Shown in pieces: positions 1,942-34,702 of a stretch of DNA of 34,702 nt (positions are counted from its first letter, which is position 1; each line of letters opens with the position of its first letter). The stretch lies in NCBI GenBank assembly GCA_964641285.1, contig CAZXKB010000029.1, forward strand, positions 1 to 34,702. Direction: 5' to 3'. This stretch comes from an uncultured Gammaproteobacteria bacterium. Its GTDB lineage: Bacteria > Patescibacteriota > Patescibacteriia > Patescibacteriales > CAZXKB01. The notes under the pieces are model-generated. The model worked only from the letters and a program-made list of their open reading frames with translations, had not been told where the DNA came from and searched no databases. A program made the translations under genes and the position numbers.

Positions 1942-3003
1942 ATGAAAATTTTAGGTATTGAAACCAGCTGCGATGAAACAGCGTCCGCGGTGATACAGGA
2001 ACAAAAGAATAATATTACTGTTCTATCCAATATTATTTCATCCCAAATTAATATCCATAAGAAATACGGTGGAGTTGTTCCGGAAGTAGCGGCCAGGGAG
2101 CATGTTTTGCAAATTTTACCAGTTATTAATGAGACGCTAAAAAAGGCTGGTCTCAAACGTCAAGAAGCGCCAAAAAAAATTAAAGTCATAGCCGTATCTG
2201 CTGGTCCCGGACTAATCACGTCTCTTCGGGTAGGCATAGAAACAGCTAAAATTTTGTCTTATGTATGGAAAATTCCAGCTATTGCTATTAATCATATTGA
2301 AGGTCATATTTACGCTAACTTTATTGATGATACAGATATTAAATTTCCATCCGTTATTTTAACAGTATCAGGCGGCCACACCATGTTGGTTTTAATGAAA
2401 GGACACGGCCGTTATCAAACTATTGGTGAAACCAGAGATGATGCGGCCGGCGAAGCCTTTGATAAAGCCGCCAATCTTTTAGAATTAGGTTATCCTGGCG
2501 GTCCGGCAATTGCAGCTGAAGCAAATAAATTTATAAAACGATACACTAAAACTTCAAACTTCAAACTTCAAACTTCAAATATAAAACTCCCTAGGCCGAT
2601 GATAAATTCCCCTAGCTTTGACTTCTCCTTTTCTGGTCTAAAAACAGCTCTATTGTATAAATTAAAAAAAGATAAAAATTGGCAAAAAAAATCCCCTGAA
2701 TACGCTTTCGAATTTCAACAAGCAATAATAGATGTTTTAATTAATAAAACTATTAAAGCCGCTCAAATATATAAAGCTAAAACCGTAATGCTCACCGGCG
2801 GTGTATCAGCTAATTATGAATTAAGAAAACAAATAACAAAAAATTTAAAAACTAAACTTCCAAAAATAAAATTTTTAATTCCTAACTTAAAATATACAAC
2901 TGATAATGCGGTCATGGTGGCTGTAGCTGGCTATTTTCATGCCGTAAAAAAAGATTTTACTCTTTGGCAAAAATTGAAAGCTGATTGCAATTTAAAACTA
3001 TAA
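1942..3003 (+). CDS. tsaD: tRNA N6-adenosine threonylcarbamoyltransferase TsaD
   Basis: The ORF-track start at 1924 overlaps the tRNA. The conserved N-terminus MKILGIETSCDETA begins at ATG 1942. The metal-binding INHIEGH motif, GGPAI and the C-terminal GGVSAN are present. Confidence 0.93.
   Translation: MKILGIETSCDETASAVIQEQKNNITVLSNIISSQINIHKKYGGVVPEVAAREHVLQILPVINETLKKAGLKRQEAPKKIKVIAVSAGPGLITSLRVGIETAKILSYVWKIPAIAINHIEGHIYANFIDDTDIKFPSVILTVSGGHTMLVLMKGHGRYQTIGETRDDAAGEAFDKAANLLELGYPGGPAIAAEANKFIKRYTKTSNFKLQTSNIKLPRPMINSPSFDFSFSGLKTALLYKLKKDKNWQKKSPEYAFEFQQAIIDVLINKTIKAAQIYKAKTVMLTGGVSANYELRKQITKNLKTKLPKIKFLIPNLKYTTDNAVMVAVAGYFHAVKKDFTLWQKLKADCNLKL
2551..2578 (+). repeat. Perfect heptanucleotide tandem repeat (ACTTCAA)x4 inside tsaD
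   Basis: Four contiguous exact copies at 2551-2557, 2558-2564, 2565-2571 and 2572-2578, encoding part of ...TKTSNFKLQTSNIKLP.... Confidence 0.95.
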
Positions 3004-3102
3004 TACTAGCTAATTAATAAAAAAACTCGAAAACACCACGTAAATATACTGATATTTAAATTTTAACTAATAATTTTATTAGTAATCTTATTAAATAGCA
3101 TC

Positions 3103-3138
3103 AAAAAAGAACGGGCTAATTTTTGTCCGTCCTTTTTT
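3103..3138. terminator. Bidirectional intrinsic terminator candidate between convergent tsaD and ppsA
   Basis: An A-run, then stem GAACGGGC (3109-3116) / GTCCGTCC (3125-3132) with one mismatch and one wobble, then TTTTTT (3133-3138). The T-run follows the hairpin on both strands. Confidence 0.5.
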
Positions 3139-3159
3139 ATTATATATAAATTCTCTTTA

Positions 3160-5544
3160 TTATTTTTTCTTTTCTAGACTTTTTTCCTTGGCTAGAACCG
3201 CCATGGTAGTTTTTATCACCGTATCCGGAATTAGGGAAATGCTATCTATGCCGCATTCAACTAAAAATTGGGCAAAGTCCGGGAAGTCACTCGGTGCTTG
3301 GCCGCAAATACCAACCTTGGTCTTCGTATCCCTGCCAACCTGTATTAAATATCTTATTAAAAATTTTACCGCTTCATTTTTTTCATTGGACGCGCCGGCG
3401 ACCTTAAGTATATCTCCGGCATCGCGGTCAATGCCTAAAGTCAATTGGGTTAAATCGTTGGAACCGATAGAAAAACCGTCAAATATCTCCGCAAATTTGG
3501 GTGCTAAAATAATATTGGAAGGAATTTCAGCCATAACATAAACTTCCAATCCGTTTTTGCTTTGCTTTAATCCGTTTTTAGCCATAATGGCCAGTACTTC
3601 TCTGCCTTCTTCCGCGGTGCGGCAAAAAGGAATCATTACTTTTAAATTAACTAGACCCATTTCATCCCGTACTTTCTTTAAGGCTGCACATTCTAATTCA
3701 AAGGCAGGTAGAAATTTAGGAGAATAATAACGGCTAGCTCCGCGCCAGCCGATCATAGGATTAGATTCTATCGGTTCATATTCTCTGCCTCCAATCAAAT
3801 CAGCATACTCATTGCTTTTAAAATCTGACAATCTAACAATCACATCTTTAGGGTAAAAAGCAGCCGTAATCGTGGCTACCCCTTCAGCCAGCTTGTCAAT
3901 AAAAAATTTAGTCTTGTTCTGGTAACCGATAGTAATTTGGTTAATTTTTTTCTTAACTGTTGAATTCTTAATTTTAGCATAATTAATCAAAGCCAAGGGA
4001 TGTACTTTGATATAGTTGTTAATAATAAATTCTAACCGGGCTAAGCCAATGCCGCTATTGGGAATAAAAGAGGAGGAAAAGGCTAAATCCGGTTCGCCCA
4101 AATTCATCATGATATCAGTTTTTGGTTTGGCTAAATTTTTTATATTAGTTTTTTTAACCTTAAAAGGAAGTTTGCCTTCATAAACATGCCCTACTTCGCC
4201 CTCGGCGCAACTCACCGTTACCGCTTGTCCGTTTTTTATTTTTTTTGTACCTCTATTCGTGCCCACTAAGCAAGGTATACCTAACTCCCGCGAAACAATA
4301 GCAGCATGGCAAGTTCGTCCGCCTTTGTCCGTCACAATAGCGGCGGCTATTTTCATAATCGGCTCCCAGTCTGGGTCAGTCATATCAGTAACCAGGACTT
4401 GTCCAGGCTTAAATTTTTTAATATCTTTAACGCCTAAAATTTTGTTAGTAGTTCCGGCCCCGATTTTACTGCCTACGCTTTGTCCAACAATAATAATTTT
4501 TCCTTTCCTGACTAGCTTATATTCTTCTAAAATATTATAATCGCGAATACTATGAATAGTTTCCGGCCTAGCCTGGGTTATATATAGTTGTTTTTCTTTA
4601 CCATCAAGGGCCCATTCTATATCCATGGGCCGGCCATAATGTTTTTCAATAATCATGGCCCAATCAGCTAATTTAATAACCTGAGCATCAGTGATTGATT
4701 GTTTTTGCTGGTCTACCTTCTTTACCTTTATATTTTTAACCGGTTGCATAGAACTGTTGTTGTATATCATTTTTAGATGTTTATGTTCGATTTTACGGGA
4801 AATAATAGCTCGGGTGGGTTTAAAGACATAAAATTCGTCTGGATTAACTTTGCCCTGAACTATGTTTTCGCCCAGGCCATAAATAGAATTAATTAAAACC
4901 GCATTAGTAAAACCGGATTCCGTATCAATAGTGAATATAACCCCCGAAGCAGCCAAATCAGAGCGTACCATTTTTTGGATTCCTGCCGACAAAGCAATTT
5001 TAAAATGATCAAAACCTTTATCGACCCGATAAGAAATAGCTCGGTTAGTAAACAAGGAAGTGATACAACGGCGAACGGCTAAAATAACATTTTTCTCACC
5101 ACGAATATTTAAAAAAGTTTCCTGCTGACCGGCAAAAGAAGCGTCTGGCAAGTCTTCGGCCGTAGCTGAAGAACGGACAGCGACATCAATTTCTTTTATT
5201 TTGTACACTTGGGATAATTGGTGATAAGCTTTTAAAATATCTTTTTCTAAATCTTTGGGAAATTCAGCTGACATAATTGCCTGGCGTACTTTAACTCCTC
5301 GTTTCATTAAATCAGTTACTTTATGCGTATTAAGCCCTTTTAAAATCTGCTTAATCTCTTTTTTTAGTCCTGCTTCCCCTAAAAAATAATTATAAGCGTA
5401 CGCCGTGGTGGCAAAACCGTTTGGGACATACACTCCTTGGCTGGTTAACTTCTGATACATTTCCCCCAAAGAAGCGTTTTTACCACCAACTTGCGGTACA
5501 TCCTTAATAGAAATTTGATTAAAAAACTTGATAAATTTTGACAT
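3160..5544 (-). CDS. ppsA: Phosphoenolpyruvate synthase (pyruvate, water dikinase)
   Basis: 794-aa ORF with N-terminal ATP-grasp region VGGKNASLGEM. The phospho-histidine swivel motif is GGRTCHAAIVSRELGIPCLVG, followed by a C-terminal PEP-utilising TIM barrel (GSNDLTQ). Confidence 0.93.
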   Translation of the reverse strand: MSKFIKFFNQISIKDVPQVGGKNASLGEMYQKLTSQGVYVPNGFATTAYAYNYFLGEAGLKKEIKQILKGLNTHKVTDLMKRGVKVRQAIMSAEFPKDLEKDILKAYHQLSQVYKIKEIDVAVRSSATAEDLPDASFAGQQETFLNIRGEKNVILAVRRCITSLFTNRAISYRVDKGFDHFKIALSAGIQKMVRSDLAASGVIFTIDTESGFTNAVLINSIYGLGENIVQGKVNPDEFYVFKPTRAIISRKIEHKHLKMIYNNSSMQPVKNIKVKKVDQQKQSITDAQVIKLADWAMIIEKHYGRPMDIEWALDGKEKQLYITQARPETIHSIRDYNILEEYKLVRKGKIIIVGQSVGSKIGAGTTNKILGVKDIKKFKPGQVLVTDMTDPDWEPIMKIAAAIVTDKGGRTCHAAIVSRELGIPCLVGTNRGTKKIKNGQAVTVSCAEGEVGHVYEGKLPFKVKKTNIKNLAKPKTDIMMNLGEPDLAFSSSFIPNSGIGLARLEFIINNYIKVHPLALINYAKIKNSTVKKKINQITIGYQNKTKFFIDKLAEGVATITAAFYPKDVIVRLSDFKSNEYADLIGGREYEPIESNPMIGWRGASRYYSPKFLPAFELECAALKKVRDEMGLVNLKVMIPFCRTAEEGREVLAIMAKNGLKQSKNGLEVYVMAEIPSNIILAPKFAEIFDGFSIGSNDLTQLTLGIDRDAGDILKVAGASNEKNEAVKFLIRYLIQVGRDTKTKVGICGQAPSDFPDFAQFLVECGIDSISLIPDTVIKTTMAVLAKEKSLEKKK

Positions 5545-12397: not shown

Positions 12398-12445
12398 ACA
12401 TACAAAAAAACGAAAATTAACAAATTAAATTAACAAAATAAAAAA

Positions 12446-12475
12446 GGCTCTTATGAATAAAGGGTCTTTTTATTA
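12446..12475 (+). terminator. Intrinsic terminator after recA
   Basis: Stem GGCTCTT (12446-12452) / AAGGGTC (12460-12466), in which two pairs are G-U wobbles valid only on the + strand. The loop is ATGAATA, followed by TTTTTATT. Confidence 0.5.
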
Positions 12476-12523
12476 TTCTCAAATTCTTTTTTCGTGTATT
12501 TTAGTATATTGTATGTATGCGGG

Positions 12524-13081
12524 CTATGCTCGCTCAACATACTCGCCCGTATCCGTATTAACTCTGATCATATCTCCCTCATTAACAAACAAAGGGGCGT
12601 TTATCTTGGCGCCGGTTTCTAGCTCCACCATCTTAGTGACACCGCCGGCAGAATTGCCCTTTACTCCTGGTGGCGCGCTTACTACCTTAAAATCTATTTT
12701 AACCGGCAGTTCAATAGCTATTGATTGACTATTAAAATACAACACATCAACATCTATGCCATCTTTTAAAAATTTTTGCTTTTCCCCAATCTTTTCAAGC
12801 GTTAGGCTAAACTGCTCATATGTTTCGCTATTCATAAAATGGGCATGGCTTTCATCTTTATACATAAAACTAGCCTTTTTTTTCTCAATGTCCGCCTCTT
12901 CGCATTTTTCACTTCCTTGAAAAGTTTTTTCTAAAATACTGCTATTAATCAAATTGCGCAACTTAGTTTTAAGCACTGCACCGCCACGAGCCATCTTATG
13001 ATGATCGGTTTTGATTACTAAATACGGTTCATTATTAATTTGAACAACCTTGCCTATTTTTATCTCATTAAAATTAAGCAT
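12524..13081 (-). CDS. efp: Elongation factor P
   Basis: 185 aa. MLNFNEIKIGKVVQINNEPYLVIKTDHHKMARGGAVLKTKLRNL... aligns position by position with EF-P, with an Arg at the loop tip. Confidence 0.95.
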   Translation of the reverse strand: MLNFNEIKIGKVVQINNEPYLVIKTDHHKMARGGAVLKTKLRNLINSSILEKTFQGSEKCEEADIEKKKASFMYKDESHAHFMNSETYEQFSLTLEKIGEKQKFLKDGIDVDVLYFNSQSIAIELPVKIDFKVVSAPPGVKGNSAGGVTKMVELETGAKINAPLFVNEGDMIRVNTDTGEYVERA

Positions 13082-13119
13082 AAAAATATAATACTAATCT
13101 ATTTAATTTATCAATCTAA

Positions 13120-13341
13120 TTATTTGTTCACAAAAGGCAGCAGGGCCATTATTCTAGCTCGCTTAATAGCAATAGCTAATTTCCGCTGGTGCCACGAACA
13201 AACACCAGTTCGTTTCCGGGGTAAAATCTTCATATGAGAATTAACAAACCGGCGAAGAGTCTGCGGATTCTTATAATCAATTTCTTTAATATTATTTATA
13301 CAAAAATAACATTGTTTTTCTTTTTTAATTGTGTCTGCCAT
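13120..13341 (-). CDS. rpsR: 30S ribosomal protein S18
   Basis: 73 aa. CYFC...IDYKN...LRRF...KILPRKRTGVCSWHQRKLAIAIKRARIMALLPF. Confidence 0.93.
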   Translation of the reverse strand: MADTIKKEKQCYFCINNIKEIDYKNPQTLRRFVNSHMKILPRKRTGVCSWHQRKLAIAIKRARIMALLPFVNK

Positions 13342-13626
13342 AAATTATTAAAAAATATTTATCTTGTATTTCCATGATTTTATATTATCCTTTTATAATA
13401 TTTAATCACTCAAAACATAAACAGCTAATTCAAAAATAATACGAACAAACTAATTAAACATAATAAAAATTTCATCAAATCCTTATATGATTCGCATAAA
13501 CTGTTCTGCTAGATGGGATAGTCCCGAGTCTATTCTTTGCATTATTTACATGTACCGAATTCGTAATACGGCATTCAATCCTACTTTCATTCGCATAGGC
13601 GACATTTGTAATGTCGCATCTAATAA

Positions 13627-18663: not shown

Positions 18664-18692
18664 TTGGCAAATTATATTATTTAATATATAAT
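18664..18692 (+). promoter_or_regulatory. sigma70-like promoter candidate for the two-component operon
   Basis: TTGGCA (18664-18669), a 17-nt spacer, then TATAAT (18687-18692), 60 nt upstream of ATG 18753. Confidence 0.4.
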
Positions 18693-18752: not shown

Positions 18753-19439
18753 ATGACTATACTAATAGTTGAAGATGAAATAAAAATTACTCGTTTCATT
18801 AAAAGGGGCTTGGAAATGGAGCATTACACTGTTGATGCGGCGTATGACGGCCAGGAAGCTTTGGAAAAAGCTGAAATAAATAATTACGATTTAATTATTT
18901 TAGATATTATGCTGCCGAAAATGGATGGCTTGGCAGTCTGCCAAAAATTACGGGAAAACAAAATTGATACCCCGATAATAATGCTTACTGCCCGAGACAC
19001 GGTGGAGGACCGCATTAAAGGCCTTGATATGGGAGCGGATGACTATCTTATTAAACCTTTTGCTTTCGGTGAATTAGTAGCTCGGGTACGGGCTTTACTC
19101 CGGCGGGAAAAAACAGTTAAATCAACCAAGCTTCAAATCGGCGACCTAATTTTAGACCCGGCTACGCATGAAGTTTATCGAGAAAATAAAGAAATACCAC
19201 TATCAAGCAAAGAATATCGTCTCCTAGATTATATGATGCGACGACCAAGCCATGTTTGTACCCGCACTATGATTGGTGAACACATTTGGGGATATAATTT
19301 TACCGATGATTCCAATGTTATTGATGTCTATATTAGCTATCTTAGGCGTAAAATTGACAATGGCTTTAAAAATAAATTAATCCATACGGTTCGCGATGTC
19401 GGCTATAAAATCCAGGATAAAACAACCAAAAAAAATTAA
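18753..19439 (+). CDS. OmpR/PhoB-family response regulator (REC + winged-helix DNA binding)
   Basis: 228 aa. ILIVEDE...DLIILDIMLPKMDG...ADDYLIKPF, then the winged-helix output EYRLLDYMMRRP...IDVYISYLRRKI...IHTVRDVGYK. Confidence 0.92.
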   Translation: MTILIVEDEIKITRFIKRGLEMEHYTVDAAYDGQEALEKAEINNYDLIILDIMLPKMDGLAVCQKLRENKIDTPIIMLTARDTVEDRIKGLDMGADDYLIKPFAFGELVARVRALLRREKTVKSTKLQIGDLILDPATHEVYRENKEIPLSSKEYRLLDYMMRRPSHVCTRTMIGEHIWGYNFTDDSNVIDVYISYLRRKIDNGFKNKLIHTVRDVGYKIQDKTTKKN

Positions 19440-19450
19440 CTTAATCTAAA

Positions 19451-22400
19451 ATGAAGTTAATAAACAAAATAACCCAAATTAAACAAATCATTACTCCAAT
19501 CTGTGATTTAAAAACCACCTTTGATTCTTTATTACAAAAAATTGAATTAATAAAGGGAGAGCTGAATTTAAATAAAATTTATTATACTATTGGCGATGAA
19601 ATGAAAAAAGTGAAGATTAGTACGGTTATTTCCATAATAGATGACGCAAGAGAAAATGCAATTGTAAGATATTTTAAATTAAAAAATGCTTACCAGGAAG
19701 GTTTTTTTGAGGAAAGGCTCCAGAAAATAAAAATTACTAAATTTAAAATGCACCAACAAGTATTTAATAAAAAACAAACTGTTTTTTGTAAAAATAGAAT
19801 TGGACAGCTTAAAAAAAATTTGCCTGGCTTAAAATCATTTCTAAATAAAATTGAAGAAAGCAACTCAATCATTTCGCCTCTTATTTTAAAAGGTGAAGTA
19901 ATTGGCGTTTTGGAAATCTTTTCAAAAAATTTAACTAAAAAGGATGTTAATTTTGTCAAAAATTTTACTCAGGATTTAACCCTTAGTATTGCCAATACGA
20001 TTCTTTTTCAGGAAATAAAAAAATCAGAAGAACGTTACCGGGAATTATGGGACAACGCTCCGGTAGCTTATCATGTTTTAGATACCAGGGGCATAATTAG
20101 GAAAGTTAATAAATCCGAAGCTAAAATGCTCGGCTCTCCCCAGGAACTAATGATTGGCCGTTCAATTTTCGAATTTATATTGCCAGAGCAAAGAGCCGAA
20201 GCCAGACAAAGATTTAAGAAAAAAATATCCGGAGAAAAAATTCCAAAAACAGAAAATAGAATATATGTTAAAAGGGGCGGCACAAAAATTTATGTGTCTA
20301 TTGATGATATTTTGGAATATGATCATACTGGCAAAATTATTGGCATACGAACAACCATGATTGATATAACCGAACGCAAAAATGCAGAAAAAGTATTAAA
20401 AATAAAAAACGATGCCATTGAATCTTCCCTTGATGCGATTGCCATATCTGATTTAGGCGGGAAAATAACTTATGTTAACCCGTCTTTTCTTAAATTCTGG
20501 AATTATAAAAATAAAAATGAAGTCATCGGTAAATCGGCGGCTGAATTCTGGCGGTCAAAAACAAAAGCAGCTGAAATTATAAAAATCCTAAAGAAAAAAA
20601 ATAAATGGTCCGGCGAACTAATGGCCAAGAAAAAAAACGGAAGCTTTTTTAATGTTCAAATTTCAGCTAGCGTAGTAATGAACGAGGCCGGAAAACCCAT
20701 TAGCCTTATGGCTTCATTTGTCGATATTACAAAGCTAAAAACAACACAAAGGGCTCTTTTGGACAGTGAAAAAAAATACAGAAAATTGGTAGATAACGCT
20801 AATGATGGCGTAATTATAATTAACACTAAAGGTTATATAACTTTTGCCAATAAAGCTTTTTGCAAAATAAGCGGTTACAGCAAAAAGGATTTGACTAATT
20901 TTCACTTTTTTAGATTAGTACACCCCGATGAACTTGATGCAATAAAAAAACGCTTTCAAGGCAGGTTAAAAAGAGATGGGATAGCACCAAATTATGAATT
21001 TAAGGCTATTGATAAAAAGGGAGGGATAAAATTCGTAAGTACATCCGGAACTCCGATGGTAGAGGGCGGCAAAACAATCGGAGTCCAAGAGATTGTCAGA
21101 GACATTACAGAAAAGAAGAAGTTACAAAAAAAAATCGAGCAAGCCAAAGAACATTTTGAACAAATAATTGATACTATTCAAGATGGTATTTGCGTTATTG
21201 ATAGAAATTTTAAAATTGTCGGCTGTAATAAAGAATTTGCTAAACAGGCAAAACTTTCTTTCTCGCAAATTAAAGGCAAAAAGTGCCAGGAAGTTATTCC
21301 GCATTATAAAAATGAATTATTCAAAAATCATTGTGCTCACATGATGTGCGGTAATGGCTGTCTGGTTGATAAGGTTTTTTTGGAAGGAAAAAAATTATCA
21401 TTTGTTGAAAGAGAAAAAGATAATATGGGAAAAATATTTTATCACAGAATTATTATTTTTCCGGCCAAAAATAATAAAGGTGAAGTCTATCAAATTGTTT
21501 TAGTTGTTGAAGATATCACCGAGGGAAAAAAGGCTGAAGAAAAAATAAAACAACTCCATGAATTTAATAAAAGAATATTGGATAATTCTCCTGTTAGTAT
21601 TATAGTTTTAGATAAAAAGGGTATAGTAATCGCGGTTAATAATTTAGCCAAAAAAATAATGAATAAAACAGACGAGCAAGCCATAAACAGGAAACTAACA
21701 AATACTAAAAGTATTAAAAATAATAAAGAACTCTTAAAAAAGTATCACCTATTATTAAGGGAAGGGAAGCCATTTTTCTATAAAAATATGTCTTATTCTC
21801 CGGAAAAAAGCAAAAAGCAACTATTTTTAAATATTATCGCCGTGCCTCTATTTGACAAAAACAAAAAAATTGATGGGGCTATTTCTATGGCTTTAGATAA
21901 CACAGAAGCGATTTCAGCTAAAAGGAAATTGGAAGAATTGAACCGAAATTTAGAACAAAGAGTTATAGAAAGAACAAACCAGCTTGATAAAATCAATAAG
22001 CAACTTAATAAAATCTTAGAACTCAAGTCAAAATTTATATCAGACGCTTCCCATGAATTAAGAACGCCATTAACCATCATACAGGGCAATCTAGATTTGG
22101 CTATTCGCGAAACTAAAAATCTAAACAATGATATCCCGGAAACTTTTAGCTTAATTAACAAAGAAATAGAACAAATATCCAGCATTTTAACTGATTTAAC
22201 CATGTTGACTAACTCCGACTCCCAGACAGAAAGACTGGCATATGAAAAAATTGATTTAGCCCAATTAATTAAAGCTGTAAGCCAGTCATTGGGAATCTTG
22301 GCCTTGCAAAAAAATATAACAATTAAAAACAAAGCAAGCTCTGATAATTTTAATATTATGGGCGATGAGGCTAAATTAGAAAAATTATTGCTTAATATTG

Positions 22401-22738
22401 TTCGTAACGCCATTAAATATAATAAGGAAAATGGCTGGGTTAAAATTTGGACTGAAAAAATTAATGATGAAGCAAGGATTATTGTAGAAGATAATGGTCT
22501 TGGTATTCCGAGGCAGGATTTGCCCTATATTTTTGAACGCTTTTATCGAGTAGATAAATCCAGGTCACGAAATGAAGAAGGCGGAACAGGGCTGGGTTTA
22601 TCTATTGCTAAATGGATTGCTGAGGCCCATAAGGGCAAAATTAGCGCGGAAAGCACTTTGGGTAAAGGCTCAAAATTTACCATTCATCTACCATTGGATT
22701 ATAAAAATCAGAAAAAAGCTATTGGCTTATTCGAATAA
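19451..22738 (+). CDS. Soluble sensor histidine kinase: GAF-like + five PAS + HisKA + HATPase_c
   Basis: 1095 aa, starting 11 nt after the RR stop, with no hydrophobic TM run. The N-terminal GAF-like domain ends in ILKGEVIGVLEIFS. Five PAS-like blocks are each closed by a DITE(R/K)K-type motif. The H-box is SHELRTPL (His868), with N-box NAIKYN, G1 DNGLGIP and G2 GGTGLGLSIA. Confidence 0.9.
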   Translation: MKLINKITQIKQIITPICDLKTTFDSLLQKIELIKGELNLNKIYYTIGDEMKKVKISTVISIIDDARENAIVRYFKLKNAYQEGFFEERLQKIKITKFKMHQQVFNKKQTVFCKNRIGQLKKNLPGLKSFLNKIEESNSIISPLILKGEVIGVLEIFSKNLTKKDVNFVKNFTQDLTLSIANTILFQEIKKSEERYRELWDNAPVAYHVLDTRGIIRKVNKSEAKMLGSPQELMIGRSIFEFILPEQRAEARQRFKKKISGEKIPKTENRIYVKRGGTKIYVSIDDILEYDHTGKIIGIRTTMIDITERKNAEKVLKIKNDAIESSLDAIAISDLGGKITYVNPSFLKFWNYKNKNEVIGKSAAEFWRSKTKAAEIIKILKKKNKWSGELMAKKKNGSFFNVQISASVVMNEAGKPISLMASFVDITKLKTTQRALLDSEKKYRKLVDNANDGVIIINTKGYITFANKAFCKISGYSKKDLTNFHFFRLVHPDELDAIKKRFQGRLKRDGIAPNYEFKAIDKKGGIKFVSTSGTPMVEGGKTIGVQEIVRDITEKKKLQKKIEQAKEHFEQIIDTIQDGICVIDRNFKIVGCNKEFAKQAKLSFSQIKGKKCQEVIPHYKNELFKNHCAHMMCGNGCLVDKVFLEGKKLSFVEREKDNMGKIFYHRIIIFPAKNNKGEVYQIVLVVEDITEGKKAEEKIKQLHEFNKRILDNSPVSIIVLDKKGIVIAVNNLAKKIMNKTDEQAINRKLTNTKSIKNNKELLKKYHLLLREGKPFFYKNMSYSPEKSKKQLFLNIIAVPLFDKNKKIDGAISMALDNTEAISAKRKLEELNRNLEQRVIERTNQLDKINKQLNKILELKSKFISDASHELRTPLTIIQGNLDLAIRETKNLNNDIPETFSLINKEIEQISSILTDLTMLTNSDSQTERLAYEKIDLAQLIKAVSQSLGILALQKNITIKNKASSDNFNIMGDEAKLEKLLLNIVRNAIKYNKENGWVKIWTEKINDEARIIVEDNGLGIPRQDLPYIFERFYRVDKSRSRNEEGGTGLGLSIAKWIAEAHKGKISAESTLGKGSKFTIHLPLDYKNQKKAIGLFE

Positions 22739-22806: not shown

Positions 22807-22895
22807 GGTTTTATACATTAATCTGCTCTTTTTATTTATCAGAAGTTAGAATGGGCAATATTTAGACAAAAAATTTACCGAAAAGGAGGTGAAAA

Positions 22896-24218
22896 ATGAT
22901 GAAAAAAGGCAATGTGTTAATAATTGACGAAGATATAGGCATAGCCACAGAAACAAAAGAATTTCTTGAGCAGAAAGATTATAAAGTTGAAGTCGCTCAT
23001 GATGGAGCCATGGCCTTACAATCCCTGCAATCATCCAAATATCATATACTGATTACAGATTTAAAATTACCAGAAATAAACGGAATTGAATTAATAAAAG
23101 AAGTAGTGAAAAAAGATCGGGATATAGCAATAATTCTAGCTACGGAATCTGCAGAAACAGAAACGATTGCCGGTGCCAAAGAACTAGGGGTAAAAGAATC
23201 AATTTCTAAGCCATACTCATTCGAATTTCTTTATAAAACAATCAGCAGACTTTTGGCTGATAAAGCTCTTGGCAAAAAAAAGAAAAACTTTCTAAGACGC
23301 CTTCAAGCAACAACGGAGATAGAATTAATTCACAGAAGCACTATTGATATTGAAAGATACACTTCCGGGTCAGAAAATCTATTTTGCCTCATGAACAATT
23401 CACAGGTAGTCCTTATTATCCTTTACTTATTCCATTTACAAATCAGGCATGGTATTTGCTTATCGGTTTCGCTTGGTTGTCCAAAAAATTGCTCTAAATG
23501 TTTTTCTGGAACACAAATGGATTTTGTTAGGCACTTTTCTGCTGAGGAAATGCTGGCTATGGTTAAAATAGCTTTAAAGGAAAGCTTCTATTTTGATGAG
23601 TCTTTCTGGCTTTATGACATGCCCTTCTTTGTTGCAGTAATGGGTTCGGGTGATATTGCTTTCAATTTTAATGAAACTATTCAGGCCATGGAAAAGTTGC
23701 ACCAACTTTTTCCTGAAAGATTTATCTGTAATATTTCCACTGCTTTCAGTAAAGGGGTTAAACAATTAAGGGCTTTTGTAAAAAATCAACTAAAAACTGC
23801 TAAACGGCCCTTTATGCCTAATTTGCAAATCTCGCTAGACAGCACCAGAGAAAAGACTAGATCGTCCATAATTGACTCGGACGAGAATCCACTTATCTTT
23901 ATCAAGGAGGCTGAAAAATACTATGATTTAACACGAAAGATAGTTATAGCTAATTTTGTCATGTGTCAGGGTATAAATGATACCAAAATAGAAATGCGGG
24001 AAATAATTAAATCTCTAAGCCCAGAAAAATTTAAAATTAAAATGTCTAAATCAAAACTTCCTCCCGGGAGCAAGCTAATTTCTGCGCCGGAAGAAAGTAT
24101 CAAAAACATAGCTGATTCACTTGAAAAATCCGGATTTGAAGTGGAGATATTTGATGAGAAAAAACAAATGGGGTTTGAAACCGGAGGAAGCTGTGGCAGT
24201 ATTGTCCATCACTTTTAA
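22896..24218 (+). CDS. Fusion protein: CheY-like receiver domain + RlmN/Cfr-family radical SAM methyl synthase domain
   Basis: 440 aa with a strong RBS, AAGGAGGTG (22883-22891). The REC domain has D11/E12/D13, D55 (ILITDLKLP), T83 and K105-P. The radical SAM part has C188-x6-C195PKNC199SKC202, then MGSGD, ISTA, ISLDS and a C-terminal GGSC433GS. It is colinear with RlmN. Confidence 0.8.
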   Translation: MMKKGNVLIIDEDIGIATETKEFLEQKDYKVEVAHDGAMALQSLQSSKYHILITDLKLPEINGIELIKEVVKKDRDIAIILATESAETETIAGAKELGVKESISKPYSFEFLYKTISRLLADKALGKKKKNFLRRLQATTEIELIHRSTIDIERYTSGSENLFCLMNNSQVVLIILYLFHLQIRHGICLSVSLGCPKNCSKCFSGTQMDFVRHFSAEEMLAMVKIALKESFYFDESFWLYDMPFFVAVMGSGDIAFNFNETIQAMEKLHQLFPERFICNISTAFSKGVKQLRAFVKNQLKTAKRPFMPNLQISLDSTREKTRSSIIDSDENPLIFIKEAEKYYDLTRKIVIANFVMCQGINDTKIEMREIIKSLSPEKFKIKMSKSKLPPGSKLISAPEESIKNIADSLEKSGFEVEIFDEKKQMGFETGGSCGSIVHHF

Positions 24219-24261
24219 GGGTAATTTCGTTATTATAAACTAATGAAATTACCCTTTTTTA
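24217..24261 (+). terminator. Intrinsic terminator after the REC-radical SAM gene
   Basis: Perfect 12-bp stem AAGGGTAATTTC (24217-24228) / GAAATTACCCTT (24245-24256), followed by TTTTA. Confidence 0.65.
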
Positions 24262-25631: not shown

Positions 25632-26060
25632 TTAATCCCTATCCCGTAATCTCTTTTTAATAAACTTTTCTGTAAAATCAACCACTTCTTTTTTCGCTTC
25701 CGGCGGACTTTCCGCCACCCAACGAGCAAAATTGTATAATTCTACTTTATCAGCTCTTAACCATTTATTGTTCAAAAATAAAAAAACAAACAAGGTTGTT
25801 ACCGCTATTCTTTTATTGCCATTCTGAAACGGATGATTTTTAATAAGCAAATAGAATAAAATAGCGGCTTTACCAATAAACCCCTTATACAAATATCCTC
25901 TATTAAATTTCTGAAACGGGGCCATAATGCAACTTTCCAGTATATGCGGGTATCTGGTCTCAAAATCAGGAATTGGTTCATCCCAACTCATTGTTTGTAC
26001 TGCCAGCTCATGAGCAATATGTTTTATTTTTTCAATTGTAATATTTTGAATCTTATTCAT
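25632..26060 (-). CDS. doc: Doc (death-on-curing)/Fic-family toxin
   Basis: The Fic motif HPFQNGNKR is present. The start is chosen at ATG 26060 (MNKIQNITIEK...), which overlaps the upstream stop by 8 nt (ATGAATAA). The track start at 26126 would overlap by 74 nt. Confidence 0.85.
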   Translation of the reverse strand: MNKIQNITIEKIKHIAHELAVQTMSWDEPIPDFETRYPHILESCIMAPFQKFNRGYLYKGFIGKAAILFYLLIKNHPFQNGNKRIAVTTLFVFLFLNNKWLRADKVELYNFARWVAESPPEAKKEVVDFTEKFIKKRLRDRD

Positions 26061-26322
26061 TGCCAAGCATTTTAAGTGTATCGCCATATTCTTTAATCGC
26101 CTTAGCAACACCCTTGCCAATTTCATTTTTAGTTTTATCAGTTAACCCACTACCAACTATATCTTCTAAGTCTTTTTTATAAATAATATAATTCCTTCCC
26201 ATTTTTTCTGCTTTTAATTGGCCTCTTTTAATTTTATTAAATACAGCAATACGACTGATATTTAAAATTTCAGCTAATTCTTTAACTGTATAGTAATTTT
26301 TTTTATTTTCATTATTGCCCAT
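26053..26322 (-). CDS. Excisionase/MerR-type HTH DNA-binding protein, putative antitoxin of Doc
   Basis: 89 aa. YYTVKELAEILNISRIAVFNKIKRGQLKAEKMGRNYIIYKKDL is an HTH_17-like motif. The gene sits upstream of doc and is translationally coupled to it. Confidence 0.65.
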   Translation of the reverse strand: MGNNENKKNYYTVKELAEILNISRIAVFNKIKRGQLKAEKMGRNYIIYKKDLEDIVGSGLTDKTKNEIGKGVAKAIKEYGDTLKMLGNE

Positions 26323-26698: not shown

Positions 26699-27232
26699 CT
26701 AAATCCTATAAAAATAAACCTTCTCATGTTTATCAGCCTCTATTTCTTTCTCGCTGGTCATGTTGGGCAAAAAAAAGGCATAGCTGATAATTATTGTACC
26801 GGACCGACACTCCTGCTTAAATTTATCTTCCAGCTTTCTCATCATGTCCGGGTTTAAGTAGCAATAAATAACATTAGCCTCATTTAAATCAACTTTAAAT
26901 AAATTCTCTTTTTTTAATATTAGCTTGTCTTTTAAAAAACTGTTTTGAATTTGGCCAAGCAAATAAGGTAGAAACGAATATTCTACTCCAACTAACTTGG
27001 CTCTGGGATATTTTTTCCGGCAAGCATGTAAAAATCCGGCACGCCCACAGCCTAATTCATAAATGGTCGCATCATCTTCAACTTTTAATTCCTCTATTAT
27101 CCTCTTGATGACCTTTGGTCTAGTGCAAACAAAAGGGGCGAAACCCCGAAAACAAATATTATAAAATTGAACAGTGAAAAATACCAAAAAGATTAAGATT
27201 AAAATTAACAAAATAAATAAAGCTACAGCCAT
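26699..27232 (-). CDS. Membrane-anchored class I SAM-dependent methyltransferase
   Basis: The track ORF extends through tRNA-Arg, so the real start is ATG 27232 (MAVALFILLILILIFLVFF = TM). SAM motif I is IYELGCGRAGF. Confidence 0.6.
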   Translation of the reverse strand: MAVALFILLILILIFLVFFTVQFYNICFRGFAPFVCTRPKVIKRIIEELKVEDDATIYELGCGRAGFLHACRKKYPRAKLVGVEYSFLPYLLGQIQNSFLKDKLILKKENLFKVDLNEANVIYCYLNPDMMRKLEDKFKQECRSGTIIISYAFFLPNMTSEKEIEADKHEKVYFYRI

Positions 27233-27292
27233 ATTTTTAAAATTATTTATTAGTAATTTAAATGTAAAATTTATCTTATTTCTTGTCAATTG

Positions 27293-27364
27293 TACGCCCA
27301 GGGGGAGTCGAACCCTCATAGCCAGCTTAGAAGGCTGGTGTTCTATCCGTTGAACTATGGGCGC
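27293..27364 (-). tRNA. tRNA-Arg (anticodon UCU)
   Basis: The reverse complement is GCGCCCATAGTTCAACGGATAGAACACCAGCCTTCTAAGCTGGCTATGAGGGTTCGACTCCCCCTGGGCGTA. The anticodon stem is CCAGC/GCTGG with loop CTTCTAA. There is a G1-U72 wobble and one A-C mismatch in the T stem. No CCA is encoded. Confidence 0.82.
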
Positions 27365-27482
27365 AAATTTTAATAGCAACCTAATCAAAAAATGTAATTT
27401 ATTCTAAAATAATATGCGTAAAATAAAATTGCCCGATATGACAACAGCTAAAATATACCAAAATTTCACCAATAAGTCAATC

Positions 27483-32118: not shown

Positions 32119-32190
32119 ATTAATTTAATTTAAAGTCTACTGTTAATAATCCATTTAATAAATCTAAAATCGCCAATCAACAATTAAGTT

Positions 32191-34702
32191 ATGCCCATCC
32201 CGCAATTAAACTATAAAAATAAAAAATCCCAAAGTTGGCGCACAGGCAAAAAAAAGTATTATATTTCCAGAAAGAAAAAAAGTAACTGGAGCGGACAAAA
32301 AAAGGGTAAAAGCAAAAATAGAAATACTAGCCTTTTTGATAGTGGAAAAAAATGGCTCTATAGCTTTAAAAGAAAATTTCTAATTATCGCCTCACTAACA
32401 ATGCTGGCTGGCATTTTATCTATCCTTTTAATGGTCGCTTGGATATCACGGGATTTGCCCGACCCTAACCGCTTAATTGAGCGCGAAATTGCCCAAAGCA
32501 CGAAAATTTATGACCGAACCGGCGAGACTATTCTTTATGATATTCACGGCAGTGAAAAAAGGACCATGGTCAATATAGAAGAAGTTCCGGATTATTTGAA
32601 ATGGGCCACGATTGCTATTGAAGATAAAAATTTTTATGAGCATAAAGGCATAAGTCTTTGGGGCATATTCAGAGGCGTTGTTTGGCAAACTATTCGCGGG
32701 AAAAGAGCCCAAGGCGGTTCAACTTTAACTCAACAGTTTGTAAAAAACGCCATTCTAACTCCGGAAAGAAAAATTACCCGCAAAATTAAAGAATGGATGC
32801 TTTCCTATAAAATTGAAGAAAAGTTCTCTAAAGACGAAATTCTACAAATGTATTTTAATGAAATACCCTATGGCTCCACCGCTTACGGGGTAGAGGCGGC
32901 GAGCCAGCGCTATTTTGGCAAAAGTGTTAAAGAAATAAATTTACCTGAAGCCGCCATTCTCGCCGCTTTGCCGCAAGCCCCTAGCCGCTATTCGCCTTAT
33001 GGATCAAATAAAGATTTATTAATCTCAAGACAGCACTATATCCTGGATTTAATGCTAGAGCAGGGTTATATTACTGAGGCCAAAGCTGAAGCGGCCAAAA
33101 TGTATGAACTAAAATTTGAACCCCCGGCGGAAAAAATAACCGCTCCGCATTTCGTTATGTATGTAAAAGAAATCCTTTCGGAAAAGTACGGCGAGAAAAT
33201 GGTTGAACAAGGCGGTTTAAAGATATATACGACTCTGGATTTATATAAACAAAAAATTGCCGAGGAAATAATCGCAGACCGGGCGGAAAAAAATGAAGAA
33301 AACTGGGAGGCGACCAATGCGGCTTTAGTTTCCCTGGACCCGAAAACCGGACAAATTTTAACTATGGTCGGCTCAAAGGACTATTTCAATGAAGAAATTG
33401 ACGGCCAGGTAAATATCACTACCAGCAACCGACAGCCCGGCTCCTCGCTTAAACCCCTAATCTATTCAACCGCTTTTTTAAAAGGCTATACGCCCAATAC
33501 TATCCTTTACGATGTGGTCACCAACTTCTCCCATGACCCGAGTGAACCTTATGAACCACATAATTATGACAGCCAAGAACATGGCCCGGTTACTATTCGC
33601 CAAGCTTTGGCCGGCTCCCTTAATATCCCGGCGGTTAAAACTATTTATTTGGCTGGCATAGACAACGTTTTGGATTTAGCTCAAGACGTAGGTTATACTA
33701 CTTTGAACGACCGCGACCGCTTTGGCTTGTCCTTGGTCTTGGGTGGCGGGGAAGTAAAATTGATTGAGCACGCCAATGCCTACAGCGCTTTTGCTCGCGA
33801 GGGTATTTTGCATCCCCTTAATGCTATTTTAAAAATAGAAAATGCTGAGGGCGAAATCATTGAAGAATTCTCTTTACAGGAAAAAAAGGTGCTTGACTCT
33901 AAAATTGCCCGCCTGACAAACGACATTCTATCAGATAATAGCGCTCGGGCTTTTGCTTTTGGGGAAAGAAACTGGCTAACTCTGGGTTCCCGGCCGGTAG
34001 CGGCAAAAACCGGCACCACTAATGATTATCGCGACGCCTGGACGATTGGCTATACGCCGTCAATTGTTACCGGGGTTTGGGTCGGCAACAATGATAATAG
34101 TGAAATGAAACGAGGGGCTGCCGGAGGCACGGTTGCCGCGCCTATTTGGCATGACTTTATGGAAAAGGTTTTAGGAGATACGCCAATAGAATATTTTAAA
34201 AACCCCGATATTGCCAAAACCGGCAAGCCAGTCCTGGACGGCGAGGCCGGTATGGCTAAAACCGTAAGAATTGATACGGCTTCCGGCCTGCTGGCTACGG
34301 AGTTTACACCCGAGAATTTAATTGAGGAAAGGGTTTATTTTGAGCCTCACTGCATTCTCTATTTTGTTAAAAAAGACGATCCGCTCGGCGATCCCCCTAA
34401 AGACCCGGCTAAAGACCCGCAATTTGACTTGTGGGAAGAACGGGTCTTGGCCTGGGCGGAGAAAGAGGCTACTTCCACTCTGGCTGCCGAGCCCTTGCCG
34501 ACTGAATTTGACAATCTGCACTTAGAAGAAAATCTGCCCAAAGTTGAAATCCTTGCCCCAACCAATAACCAGACCATGCTTAACTCCTTGCTCGTAGCCC
34601 GCCTTAAAGCCACCGCTCCCCGAGGCATTTACAAAGCTGAATATTACATTGATGATAATCTGCTTTTTGTTAATTATTCTTATCCTTTTAATCTGGAGAA
34701 AA
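32191..34702 (+). CDS. Class A penicillin-binding protein (GT51 transglycosylase + transpeptidase); 3' end outside the window
   Basis: Not in the ORF track because there is no stop before the window end. From ATG 32191 there is a basic cytoplasmic tail and one TM (LIIASLTMLAGILSILLMVAWI). GT51 motifs are EDKNFYEHKG and GGSTLTQQ. Transpeptidase motifs are SxxK (GSSLKP), SxN (GSLNIP) and KTGTT. Confidence 0.92.
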   Translation, partial: MPIPQLNYKNKKSQSWRTGKKKYYISRKKKSNWSGQKKGKSKNRNTSLFDSGKKWLYSFKRKFLIIASLTMLAGILSILLMVAWISRDLPDPNRLIEREIAQSTKIYDRTGETILYDIHGSEKRTMVNIEEVPDYLKWATIAIEDKNFYEHKGISLWGIFRGVVWQTIRGKRAQGGSTLTQQFVKNAILTPERKITRKIKEWMLSYKIEEKFSKDEILQMYFNEIPYGSTAYGVEAASQRYFGKSVKEINLPEAAILAALPQAPSRYSPYGSNKDLLISRQHYILDLMLEQGYITEAKAEAAKMYELKFEPPAEKITAPHFVMYVKEILSEKYGEKMVEQGGLKIYTTLDLYKQKIAEEIIADRAEKNEENWEATNAALVSLDPKTGQILTMVGSKDYFNEEIDGQVNITTSNRQPGSSLKPLIYSTAFLKGYTPNTILYDVVTNFSHDPSEPYEPHNYDSQEHGPVTIRQALAGSLNIPAVKTIYLAGIDNVLDLAQDVGYTTLNDRDRFGLSLVLGGGEVKLIEHANAYSAFAREGILHPLNAILKIENAEGEIIEEFSLQEKKVLDSKIARLTNDILSDNSARAFAFGERNWLTLGSRPVAAKTGTTNDYRDAWTIGYTPSIVTGVWVGNNDNSEMKRGAAGGTVAAPIWHDFMEKVLGDTPIEYFKNPDIAKTGKPVLDGEAGMAKTVRIDTASGLLATEFTPENLIEERVYFEPHCILYFVKKDDPLGDPPKDPAKDPQFDLWEERVLAWAEKEATSTLAAEPLPTEFDNLHLEENLPKVEILAPTNNQTMLNSLLVARLKATAPRGIYKAEYYIDDNLLFVNYSYPFNLEK

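Follow-up and report, generated by a model that had tools for sequence, protein, structure and literature searches.

What does a gene encode when it joins the receiver of a response regulator to an enzyme domain of the RlmN type, and on what would such an enzyme act? The question is raised by a gene at positions 22896–24218 (+) of the window, the whole stretch of 34,702 nucleotides that was analysed (contig CAZXKB010000029.1 of assembly GCA_964641285.1). Its product is read, with moderate confidence, as a two-domain response regulator: a divergent class A radical S-adenosylmethionine (SAM) methyl synthase gated by phosphorylation, a paralogue of RlmN with a non-canonical substrate. Related proteins are designated by P-numbers, and contigs carrying relatives or their neighbourhoods by L-numbers. 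A1 is the family alignment, A3 is a 19-sequence MAFFT alignment that includes Escherichia coli RlmN and Staphylococcus aureus Cfr, and A4 is the alignment used for signature positions. The gene, its signals and the parts of its product (amino acids, aa) are listed below.

22885–22891, + strand: Shine-Dalgarno sequence GGAGGTG, 4 nt before the ATG at 22896, read from the sequence
22896–24218, + strand: fusion gene, receiver and RlmN-like radical SAM domain, 440 aa, uninterrupted open reading frame (ORF)
22911–23255, + strand: receiver domain, aa 6–120, with D11/E12/D13, T83 and K105-P106 (Pfam PF00072, AlphaFold2 model and Foldseek)
23058–23060, + strand: codon of D55, the predicted phospho-acceptor aspartate, invariant in A1, after strand beta3 (residues 51–54 in the model)
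23220–23300, + strand: long alpha5/linker helix, aa 109–135, ending in a basic KKKKN-LRR motif, K129 invariant
23319–23426, + strand: three long beta strands, aa 142–177, in the AlphaFold2 model, interpreted as equivalent to the beta' sheet extension of RlmN/Cfr
23448–24155, + strand: radical SAM core, aa 185–420, with counterparts of the SAM motifs MGSGD (249–253), NIST (279–282) and ISLDS (312–316)
23457–23501, + strand: C188 (the resolving cysteine, C118 of RlmN), then the [4Fe-4S] motif C195-x3-C199-x2-C202, placed by alignments and invariant in the family
24192–24194, + strand: codon of C433 (the methyl-carrying cysteine, C355 of RlmN), in a low-confidence, probably flexible C-terminal tail
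24217–24256, + strand: terminator-like hairpin, 16-bp stem and T run, beginning in the last bases of the stop codon

The receiver half is a complete CheY-like domain, as an earlier note on this DNA had claimed. Response_reg is placed by Pfam at residues 7–116 (E=8e-23; 81.1 bits, cut-off 30.2). The phosphorylation site is complete, with the acidic pocket D11/E12/D13, D55 in ILITDLKLP, T83 and K105-P106, and agrees with the modelled strands. The fold is (beta-alpha)5 in the AlphaFold2 model. Superposition by Foldseek on solved receivers gives template modelling scores of 0.85–0.92 (normalised by target length) and root-mean-square deviations (rmsd) of 1.0–1.9 Å. Receivers of the NtrC1 type are among the best sequence matches in the PDB (1zy2, 1ny5, 4l4u), with the alignment continuing through the linker to residues 136–147. 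Receivers of PorX and RssB are among both sequence and fold matches of this half. The residue numbers given in the earlier note for the receiver, the cluster, the cysteines, MGSGD, ISLDS and GGSC433GS are all correct on recheck.

The C-terminal 314 aa match RlmN and Cfr alone among all PDB sequences: 6fz6 with E=3e-10, E. coli RlmN (3rf9) with E=0.019 and Cfr (9p0p) with E=0.047. The NCBIfam model of RlmN, TIGR00048, aligns to residues 110–435 (E=2.4e-19). The cluster and both mechanistic cysteines are retained, again in agreement with the earlier note: C188 corresponds to C118 of E. coli RlmN, C195/C199/C202 to C125/C129/C132 and C433 to C355, both by HMMER alignment to that protein and by MAFFT alignment in A3. 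By the same two alignments MGSGD corresponds to MGMGE and ISLDS to ISLHA. The residues of a class A radical SAM methyl synthase are thus all present, namely CX3CX2C, an upstream resolving cysteine and a C-terminal methyl-carrying cysteine. A weak Pfam match to TusA at residues 387–422 (E=0.055) is treated as chance.

The AlphaFold2 model, for which the family alignment served as input, is of high overall quality (predicted local distance difference test score 87, predicted template modelling score 0.86). It shows, in order, the (beta-alpha)5 receiver, the helix 109–135, the strands 142–177, the radical SAM core and, modelled with low confidence, the tail with C433. The structure prediction and superposition proposed in the earlier note bear out its assignment: the top 11 fold matches in the PDB are ten chains of RlmN followed by Cfr, with receiver domains next, and Foldseek E-values to RlmN structures range from 2e-15 to 5e-12. 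RlmN and Cfr consist of an HhH2 domain, a beta'1-3 extension, a partial TIM barrel and an unstructured C-terminus (PMC13001441). The beta' extension, the partial TIM barrel and the flexible C-terminal tail are all found in the model, which follows this plan except that a receiver stands in place of the HhH2 domain. Judged from the model, the strands 142–177 would be equivalent to beta'1-3, which link the N-terminal domain to the core.

Compared with RlmN of E. coli (YfgB; 23S m2A2503 and tRNA m2A37), the protein has the same fold (Foldseek E about 1e-13; rmsd 3.1–3.5 Å in the better superpositions; 290–346 aligned columns). It shares CX3CX2C, equivalents of C118 and C355, the MGxG(E/D), S-T and S-L motifs, the three strands before the core and the flexible tail. 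It differs in sequence (about 18% identity), in the N-terminal domain and in a three-residue insertion before the loop of the methyl-carrying cysteine (EIFDEKKQMGFETGGSCG, in RlmN RKTRGDDIDAACGQL). Cfr (23S m8A2503, antibiotic resistance) belongs to the same superfamily and has the same two-cysteine mechanism and fold. It is more distant than RlmN, its PDB match covering the C-terminal third only. The retained cluster, C188 and C433 suggest that the protein is catalytic and that cysteine-mediated radical methylation of an sp2 carbon is preserved, most plausibly on the adenine ring. In such a cycle SAM would methylate C433, a 5'-deoxyadenosyl radical would activate the methyl group on C433, the activated methyl would add to the sp2 carbon of the substrate, and C188 would resolve the adduct.

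Is the protein then a functional RlmN or Cfr, acting on 23S A2503 and/or tRNA A37, whose receiver places a housekeeping or resistance mark under two-component control? This was proposed in the earlier note. The exclusive PDB matches, the best fold matches and the retained cluster and cysteines speak for it, as does the name given to P0002 by the JGI pipeline ('adenine C2-methylase RlmN.../CheY-like'). The gene rlmN is incompletely conserved in bacteria of the Candidate Phyla Radiation (PMC12641178), so that some lineage could depend on a variant, and RlmN is known as a stress-responsive enzyme (PMC10336011). The proposal is not supported by comparison with the models and the substrate-side residues, and is considered improbable. 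The score against TIGR00048 is 69.5 bits, far below the cut-off of 290, and other members of the fusion family reach 25–40 bits. The Cfr models TIGR04432 and NF000424 (cut-offs 530–550 bits) are absent among the best 25 NCBIfam matches, the weakest of which has 45 bits. No Pfam match to RlmN_N (PF21016), the RNA-anchoring HhH2 domain, is observed in the window protein even at E≤1, and this domain is present in 36 of the 150 scanned proteins (best search hits and three family members).

Residues on the substrate side are changed. RlmN T116 is replaced by G186, N172 by F245, T209 by N279, A231 by Q311 and R344 by F419; the glutamate of the E-Y motif is replaced by N353, N-L-I by K382-x-S384 and K345 by D420. 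Five alignment positions (A4) separate 46 sequences of canonical type, with A, E, N-x-I and R, from 88 short relatives of about 255–320 aa without N-terminal domain, most of which have Q, N, K-x-S and F or Y. The window protein has Q311, N353, K382-x-S384 and F419. All eight family members with residues at these positions carry the second signature; the fragment P0017 is gapped at four. When the contacts listed for the Cfr-rRNA complex (PMC13001441) are mapped onto the protein, the positions of RNA-backbone contact are found to be replaced (G186, F245, A247, F419, D420). In that complex four serines of Cfr clamp the phosphate of U2504, and R327 of Cfr (R344 of RlmN) contacts the ribose of A2503 (PMC13001441). 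The clamp (S103, S151, S153, S187) reads G, F, A, N in the fusion protein, and the position of the arginine is an invariant phenylalanine (F419) in the fusion family. A comparison of net charge and isoelectric point of the enzyme half with RlmN and Cfr was of no use in discriminating RNA binding. A clostridial Cfr-like clade, much closer to Cfr than the present family, is already devoid of A2503 activity (PMC5062987). Since the clade lacks the HhH2 RNA-binding domain and the substrate-contact residues are altered, the target of the proposed methyl synthase is probably neither A2503 nor A37, but another RNA site or a free purine nucleotide.

A canonical RlmN coexists with a member of the family. 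It is encoded in L002 at 12445–13452 (−), 5 kb from the fusion gene, and has 335 aa and 343 bits against TIGR00048. The fusion protein of the same contig, P0004, shares 54% identity with the window protein. This makes the fusion a paralogue and not the housekeeping enzyme. In a neighbour-joining tree, 13 family sequences, two of them unfused, are monophyletic with 100% bootstrap and a very long stem (0.62). They are nested among the short proteins, and Cfr and the RlmN proteins of E. coli and L002 lie elsewhere in the tree; this nesting is weakly supported (bootstrap ≤53%), and a long-branch effect is possible. The nearest neighbours in the tree include the receiver-fused P0093 (53% support) and P0018, which bears a pseudo-receiver. 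The shared signature residues point the same way as the nesting. The earlier note had the N-terminal domain of RlmN replaced by the receiver. The absence of RlmN_N and the presence of a receiver at its place are confirmed, but an actual replacement is unlikely: the nearest relatives already lack the domain, which makes it probable that a lineage of this kind gained the receiver.

After the family itself, the nearest relatives by profile score are the short RlmN-like proteins (e.g. P0019–P0036). Their clade is large and keeps both mechanistic cysteines. With the fusion they share Q311, N353, K-x-S, F/Y419 and the absence of RlmN_N. They differ in having no receiver, in scoring 130–185 bits against the RlmN model and in mostly keeping the ending ...GCGQL. 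Among the top 150 matches, four short-clade proteins have C-terminal nucleotide-hydrolase domains from three unrelated superfamilies: HD with HD_assoc, dGTP-triphosphohydrolase-like, in P0037; Ham1/RdgB, XTP/dITP diphosphatase-like, in P0081; and NUDIX in P0110 and P0141. A dGTPase-like HD gene directly adjoins the short-clade gene in both of the two neighbourhoods examined, as follows.

L022, 86–1411 with 1464–2339: short-clade gene (P0019) and HD gene pair
L021, 104–1003 with 1028–2017: short-clade gene (P0027) and HD gene pair

No literature on such hydrolase fusions of the short clade was found. A scan of viral contigs with short-clade motifs yielded canonical-type RlmN genes only, without NTPase neighbours. 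By Rosetta-stone logic the fused and adjoining hydrolases point to free purine nucleotides as substrate or product of the clade, and suggest that its members are class A methyl synthases acting on free nucleotides. The missing RNA-binding domain and the change from arginine to phenylalanine fit this. By extension, the fusion protein may itself C-methylate a free purine nucleotide and not rRNA or tRNA, so that a modified nucleotide would be made at the command of a kinase, to serve as signal or antimetabolite in analogy to receiver-GGDEF proteins. This extension is tentative and rather unlikely: the fusion family is itself not fused to such hydrolases, unlike several of the short proteins, and sits on a long branch. 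In another member of the short clade, P0052, the fusion partner is a class I SAM methyltransferase.

The fusion recurs, and is rare. When the enzyme half was used as query in a word-indexed search of 5.8 billion proteins, 8 receiver-fused proteins of 429–460 aa (35–100% identity) were obtained and, besides these, one distant RlmN-like protein. Apart from the window protein itself, seven fused proteins of this architecture, drawn from assemblies of JGI, Logan and NCBI, can be aligned over their whole length, with 35–78% identity. An exhaustive HMMER search added three more distant fused proteins (29–33% identity in A3); in it only nine sequences among 1.84 billion representatives are found at E≤1e-30, and beyond these the scores fall off steeply. 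D55, K105, P106, C188, C195, C199, C202 and C433 are invariant in A1. A motif scan of 185,579 GTDB species genomes for close family members gave spurious receiver matches only; its patterns were strict, and distant members could be missed. A scan of metagenome contigs added only an unfused form (L012/L013) and one canonical RlmN. An apparent N-terminal truncation of P0006 is a miscalled start, the call being 42 nt late (L004, 8362–8403); with the TTG start that GGGGGTG precedes, beta1 and the DDD acidic pocket are recovered. The belief of the earlier note that no characterised example exists is upheld: no receiver-radical SAM or receiver-RlmN protein is described in the literature searched.

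An assembly chimera or frameshift, in which receiver and radical SAM protein would in reality be encoded by two genes, has next to no probability. It could appeal to P0014 and the L012 protein, which show that the enzyme half can stand alone. The same fusion with the conserved linker (KKK-N-LR...) is found on independent contigs from JGI, Logan and NCBI at 29–80% identity, the ORF is uninterrupted, and the AlphaFold2 model is confident across the junction. Chimera and frameshift are refuted by these independent fused relatives and by the conserved loci.

The fusion gene is the third gene of a unit on one strand, preceded by the following features.

18664–18692, + strand: promoter-like site TTGGCA-17-TATAAT upstream of the three-gene unit, 11/12, consensus match only
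18753–19439, + strand: response regulator of the OmpR family (Response_reg and Trans_reg_C), first gene of the unit
19451–22738, + strand: histidine kinase, 1095 aa, with Pfam domains GAF, about five PAS, HisKA and HATPase_c, second gene of the unit and putative phosphodonor

The adjacent kinase gene assumed in the earlier note is thus present, directly 5' of the fusion gene. The order OmpR-type regulator, multi-PAS kinase (taken to be cytoplasmic), fusion is found in the window and in L001, L002, L004, L005, L007 and L019. In all of these loci but L019, the unit was recorded as lying on one strand with gaps of 60–190 bp; flanking genes vary by locus. The kinases have multiple PAS domains, HisKA and HATPase, with an additional GAF domain in the window. 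No terminator-like site is detected by the window scan in the gap between the kinase and fusion genes. Total counts in the promoter and terminator scan are at the shuffled expectation, and only individual strong sites are cited. From the shared order, the promoter-like site and the lack of a terminator before the fusion gene, the three genes are most simply one transcription unit with two outputs.

The OmpR-type regulator is unusually conserved (80–91% identity over seven loci), more than the housekeeping protein YchF (66–80%) and far more than the sensor region of the kinase (38–72%). One PAS domain of the kinase has a cysteine-rich motif, HCAHMMCGNGC (window 21329–21361, kinase residues 627–637), possibly a metal or redox ligand. 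Of the orthologues, those of L001 and L007 keep the motif in part and the others lack it, and it gives no clue to the signal. A gene for an HAD-IA phosphatase lies 3' of the fusion gene, on the same strand, in two loci of the family (L001, L019), which is counted in favour of a free nucleotide as substrate. PADLOC defence models give weak matches only, driven by the receiver. An Rfam match to SNORD36 inside the coding sequence of the kinase (22122–22199, +; 32.8 bits, E=0.13, just above the gathering score) is almost certainly chance.

In the proposed system a signal perceived by the kinase would give a transcriptional output, through the OmpR-type regulator, and an enzymatic output, through the fusion protein, together. 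The N-terminal receiver would accept a phosphoryl group on D55. Phosphorylation would act on the enzyme by way of the alpha4-beta5-alpha5 face and the long linker helix, switching it either by altered dimerisation or by altered packing of the receiver on the beta' extension and the C-terminal tail. Such a switch is plausible in that the matches to NtrC1-type receivers run through the linker helix.

Besides the weakly supported nesting in the tree, several observations weigh against a phospho-gated methyl synthase. Helix alpha1 of receivers normally carries the residues of kinase specificity. In the fusion receiver alpha1 is unlike that of the co-encoded OmpR-type regulator and varies between loci, whereas the H-box region of the kinase, identified at four loci, is conserved among them. 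The sequences thus give no support to phosphotransfer by the adjacent kinase. No canonical rlmN is present in the 34.7 kb window. P0093 (L019, 5623–6954), a syntenic and receiver-fused orthologue of about 24% identity, retains the cluster motif and the methyl-carrying cysteine but has serine for the resolving cysteine; one further fragment of its subfamily (P0039) was found in the 5.8 billion proteins. Receivers are partly degenerate in P0013, P0015 and P0018. Unfused members exist, namely P0014 and the protein of L012 and L013. The L012 protein has 339 aa, with the linker motif kept and the receiver absent. Both still come after a kinase gene. The intervals of the L012 locus are as follows.

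L012, also L013, 68–1087, 1324–2343 (the unfused member), 2246–3316 and 4467–5054

The unfused gene lies directly 3' of a histidine kinase gene (HisKA/HATPase-type by eye) and is followed by two radical SAM genes, of which one at least, the first, is of SPASM type, and by ORFs of no known kind. This context differs from the usual three-gene unit. The fusion is also the fastest-evolving gene of the unit: in comparison with the window, its receiver has 26–74% and its radical SAM part 31–80% identity, against the figures given above for the OmpR-type regulator and YchF. Fast evolution could mean relaxed constraint.

Several of these points would also fit a radical SAM half without turnover. The protein would then be a phosphate sink competing with the OmpR-type regulator, or an Fe-S, SAM or oxygen sensor feeding back on the kinase as an input. 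The rate of evolution, the loss of the resolving cysteine in P0093 and the members with a degenerate receiver or none are in its favour, and canonical RlmN senses reactive oxygen species via its cluster (PMC10336011). However, the cluster cysteines, C188, C433, G252/D253, S281/T282, S313 and R322 are invariant or nearly so down to 35% identity. Their conservation despite divergence argues for selection on catalysis and not on cluster binding alone, and a sink or sensor is considered quite improbable.

The divergent methyl synthase remains the preferred reading, and its parts have known counterparts. Enzymatic-output response regulators and the RlmN/Cfr methyl synthases are each known. In the former (CheB methylesterase, PleD and WspR with GGDEF, RpfG with HD-GYP, PorX) there is likewise a receiver with a phosphorylation site, a linker, an enzyme domain and a neighbouring kinase; the output here is a radical SAM domain, a type not found in the literature searched. 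Receivers of the NtrC1/DctD type with an extended alpha5 linker resemble the fusion model, in which residues 109–135 likewise form one continuous helix; the fusion differs in being without an AAA+ or DNA-binding part. The combination of a receiver with an RlmN/Cfr-type enzyme is rare and is not described in the literature searched. The protein is best classed twice: with the class A radical SAM methyl synthases, as a new clade of their superfamily, and with the response regulators, as a new type of output.

The family offers a handle on the function of the many paralogues of RlmN/Cfr type without A2503 activity, and on whether phosphorylation can switch radical SAM chemistry post-translationally. 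With the variant C118A of RlmN, a covalent cross-link of the enzyme to its substrate tRNA has been captured (PMC13001441). The substrate of the fusion protein should, by analogy, be trapped by a C188A variant, which makes the question of the substrate tractable. The serine at the resolving position of P0093 corresponds to such a change, which in RlmN traps the adduct of enzyme and substrate. An RNA substrate would make the protein an epitranscriptomic writer under the control of a signal. With a nucleotide as substrate, it would stand for regulated nucleotide modification of a new type; no earlier class A radical SAM methyl synthase would have a substrate other than RNA, and two-component signalling would have no earlier output domain of the radical SAM kind. 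No link of the fusion to antibiotic resistance of the Cfr type has been demonstrated.

Other features of the window are as follows. The GC content is 35.5%, and a gene resembling a pilin of type IV secretion systems is present; together with relatives from metagenomes only, these features may hint at an origin in Patescibacteria/CPR. About 1.4 kb downstream of the fusion gene, at 25632–26322 (−), the gene of a Fic/Doc-family protein (164 aa) overlaps that of a small HTH_17 protein (89 aa); the pair looks like a toxin-antitoxin module of Doc type. An ORF at 26699–27388 (−) overlaps the tRNA-Arg(UCU) gene at 27292–27364 (−), so that translation must really begin further downstream. Shortened in this way, the product has 196 aa and gives no Pfam match. 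A roughly positional counterpart in L001 (10023–10805) is a class I methyltransferase by Pfam matches. An open frame of at least 838 aa, at 32188–34701 (+), runs off the end of the window.

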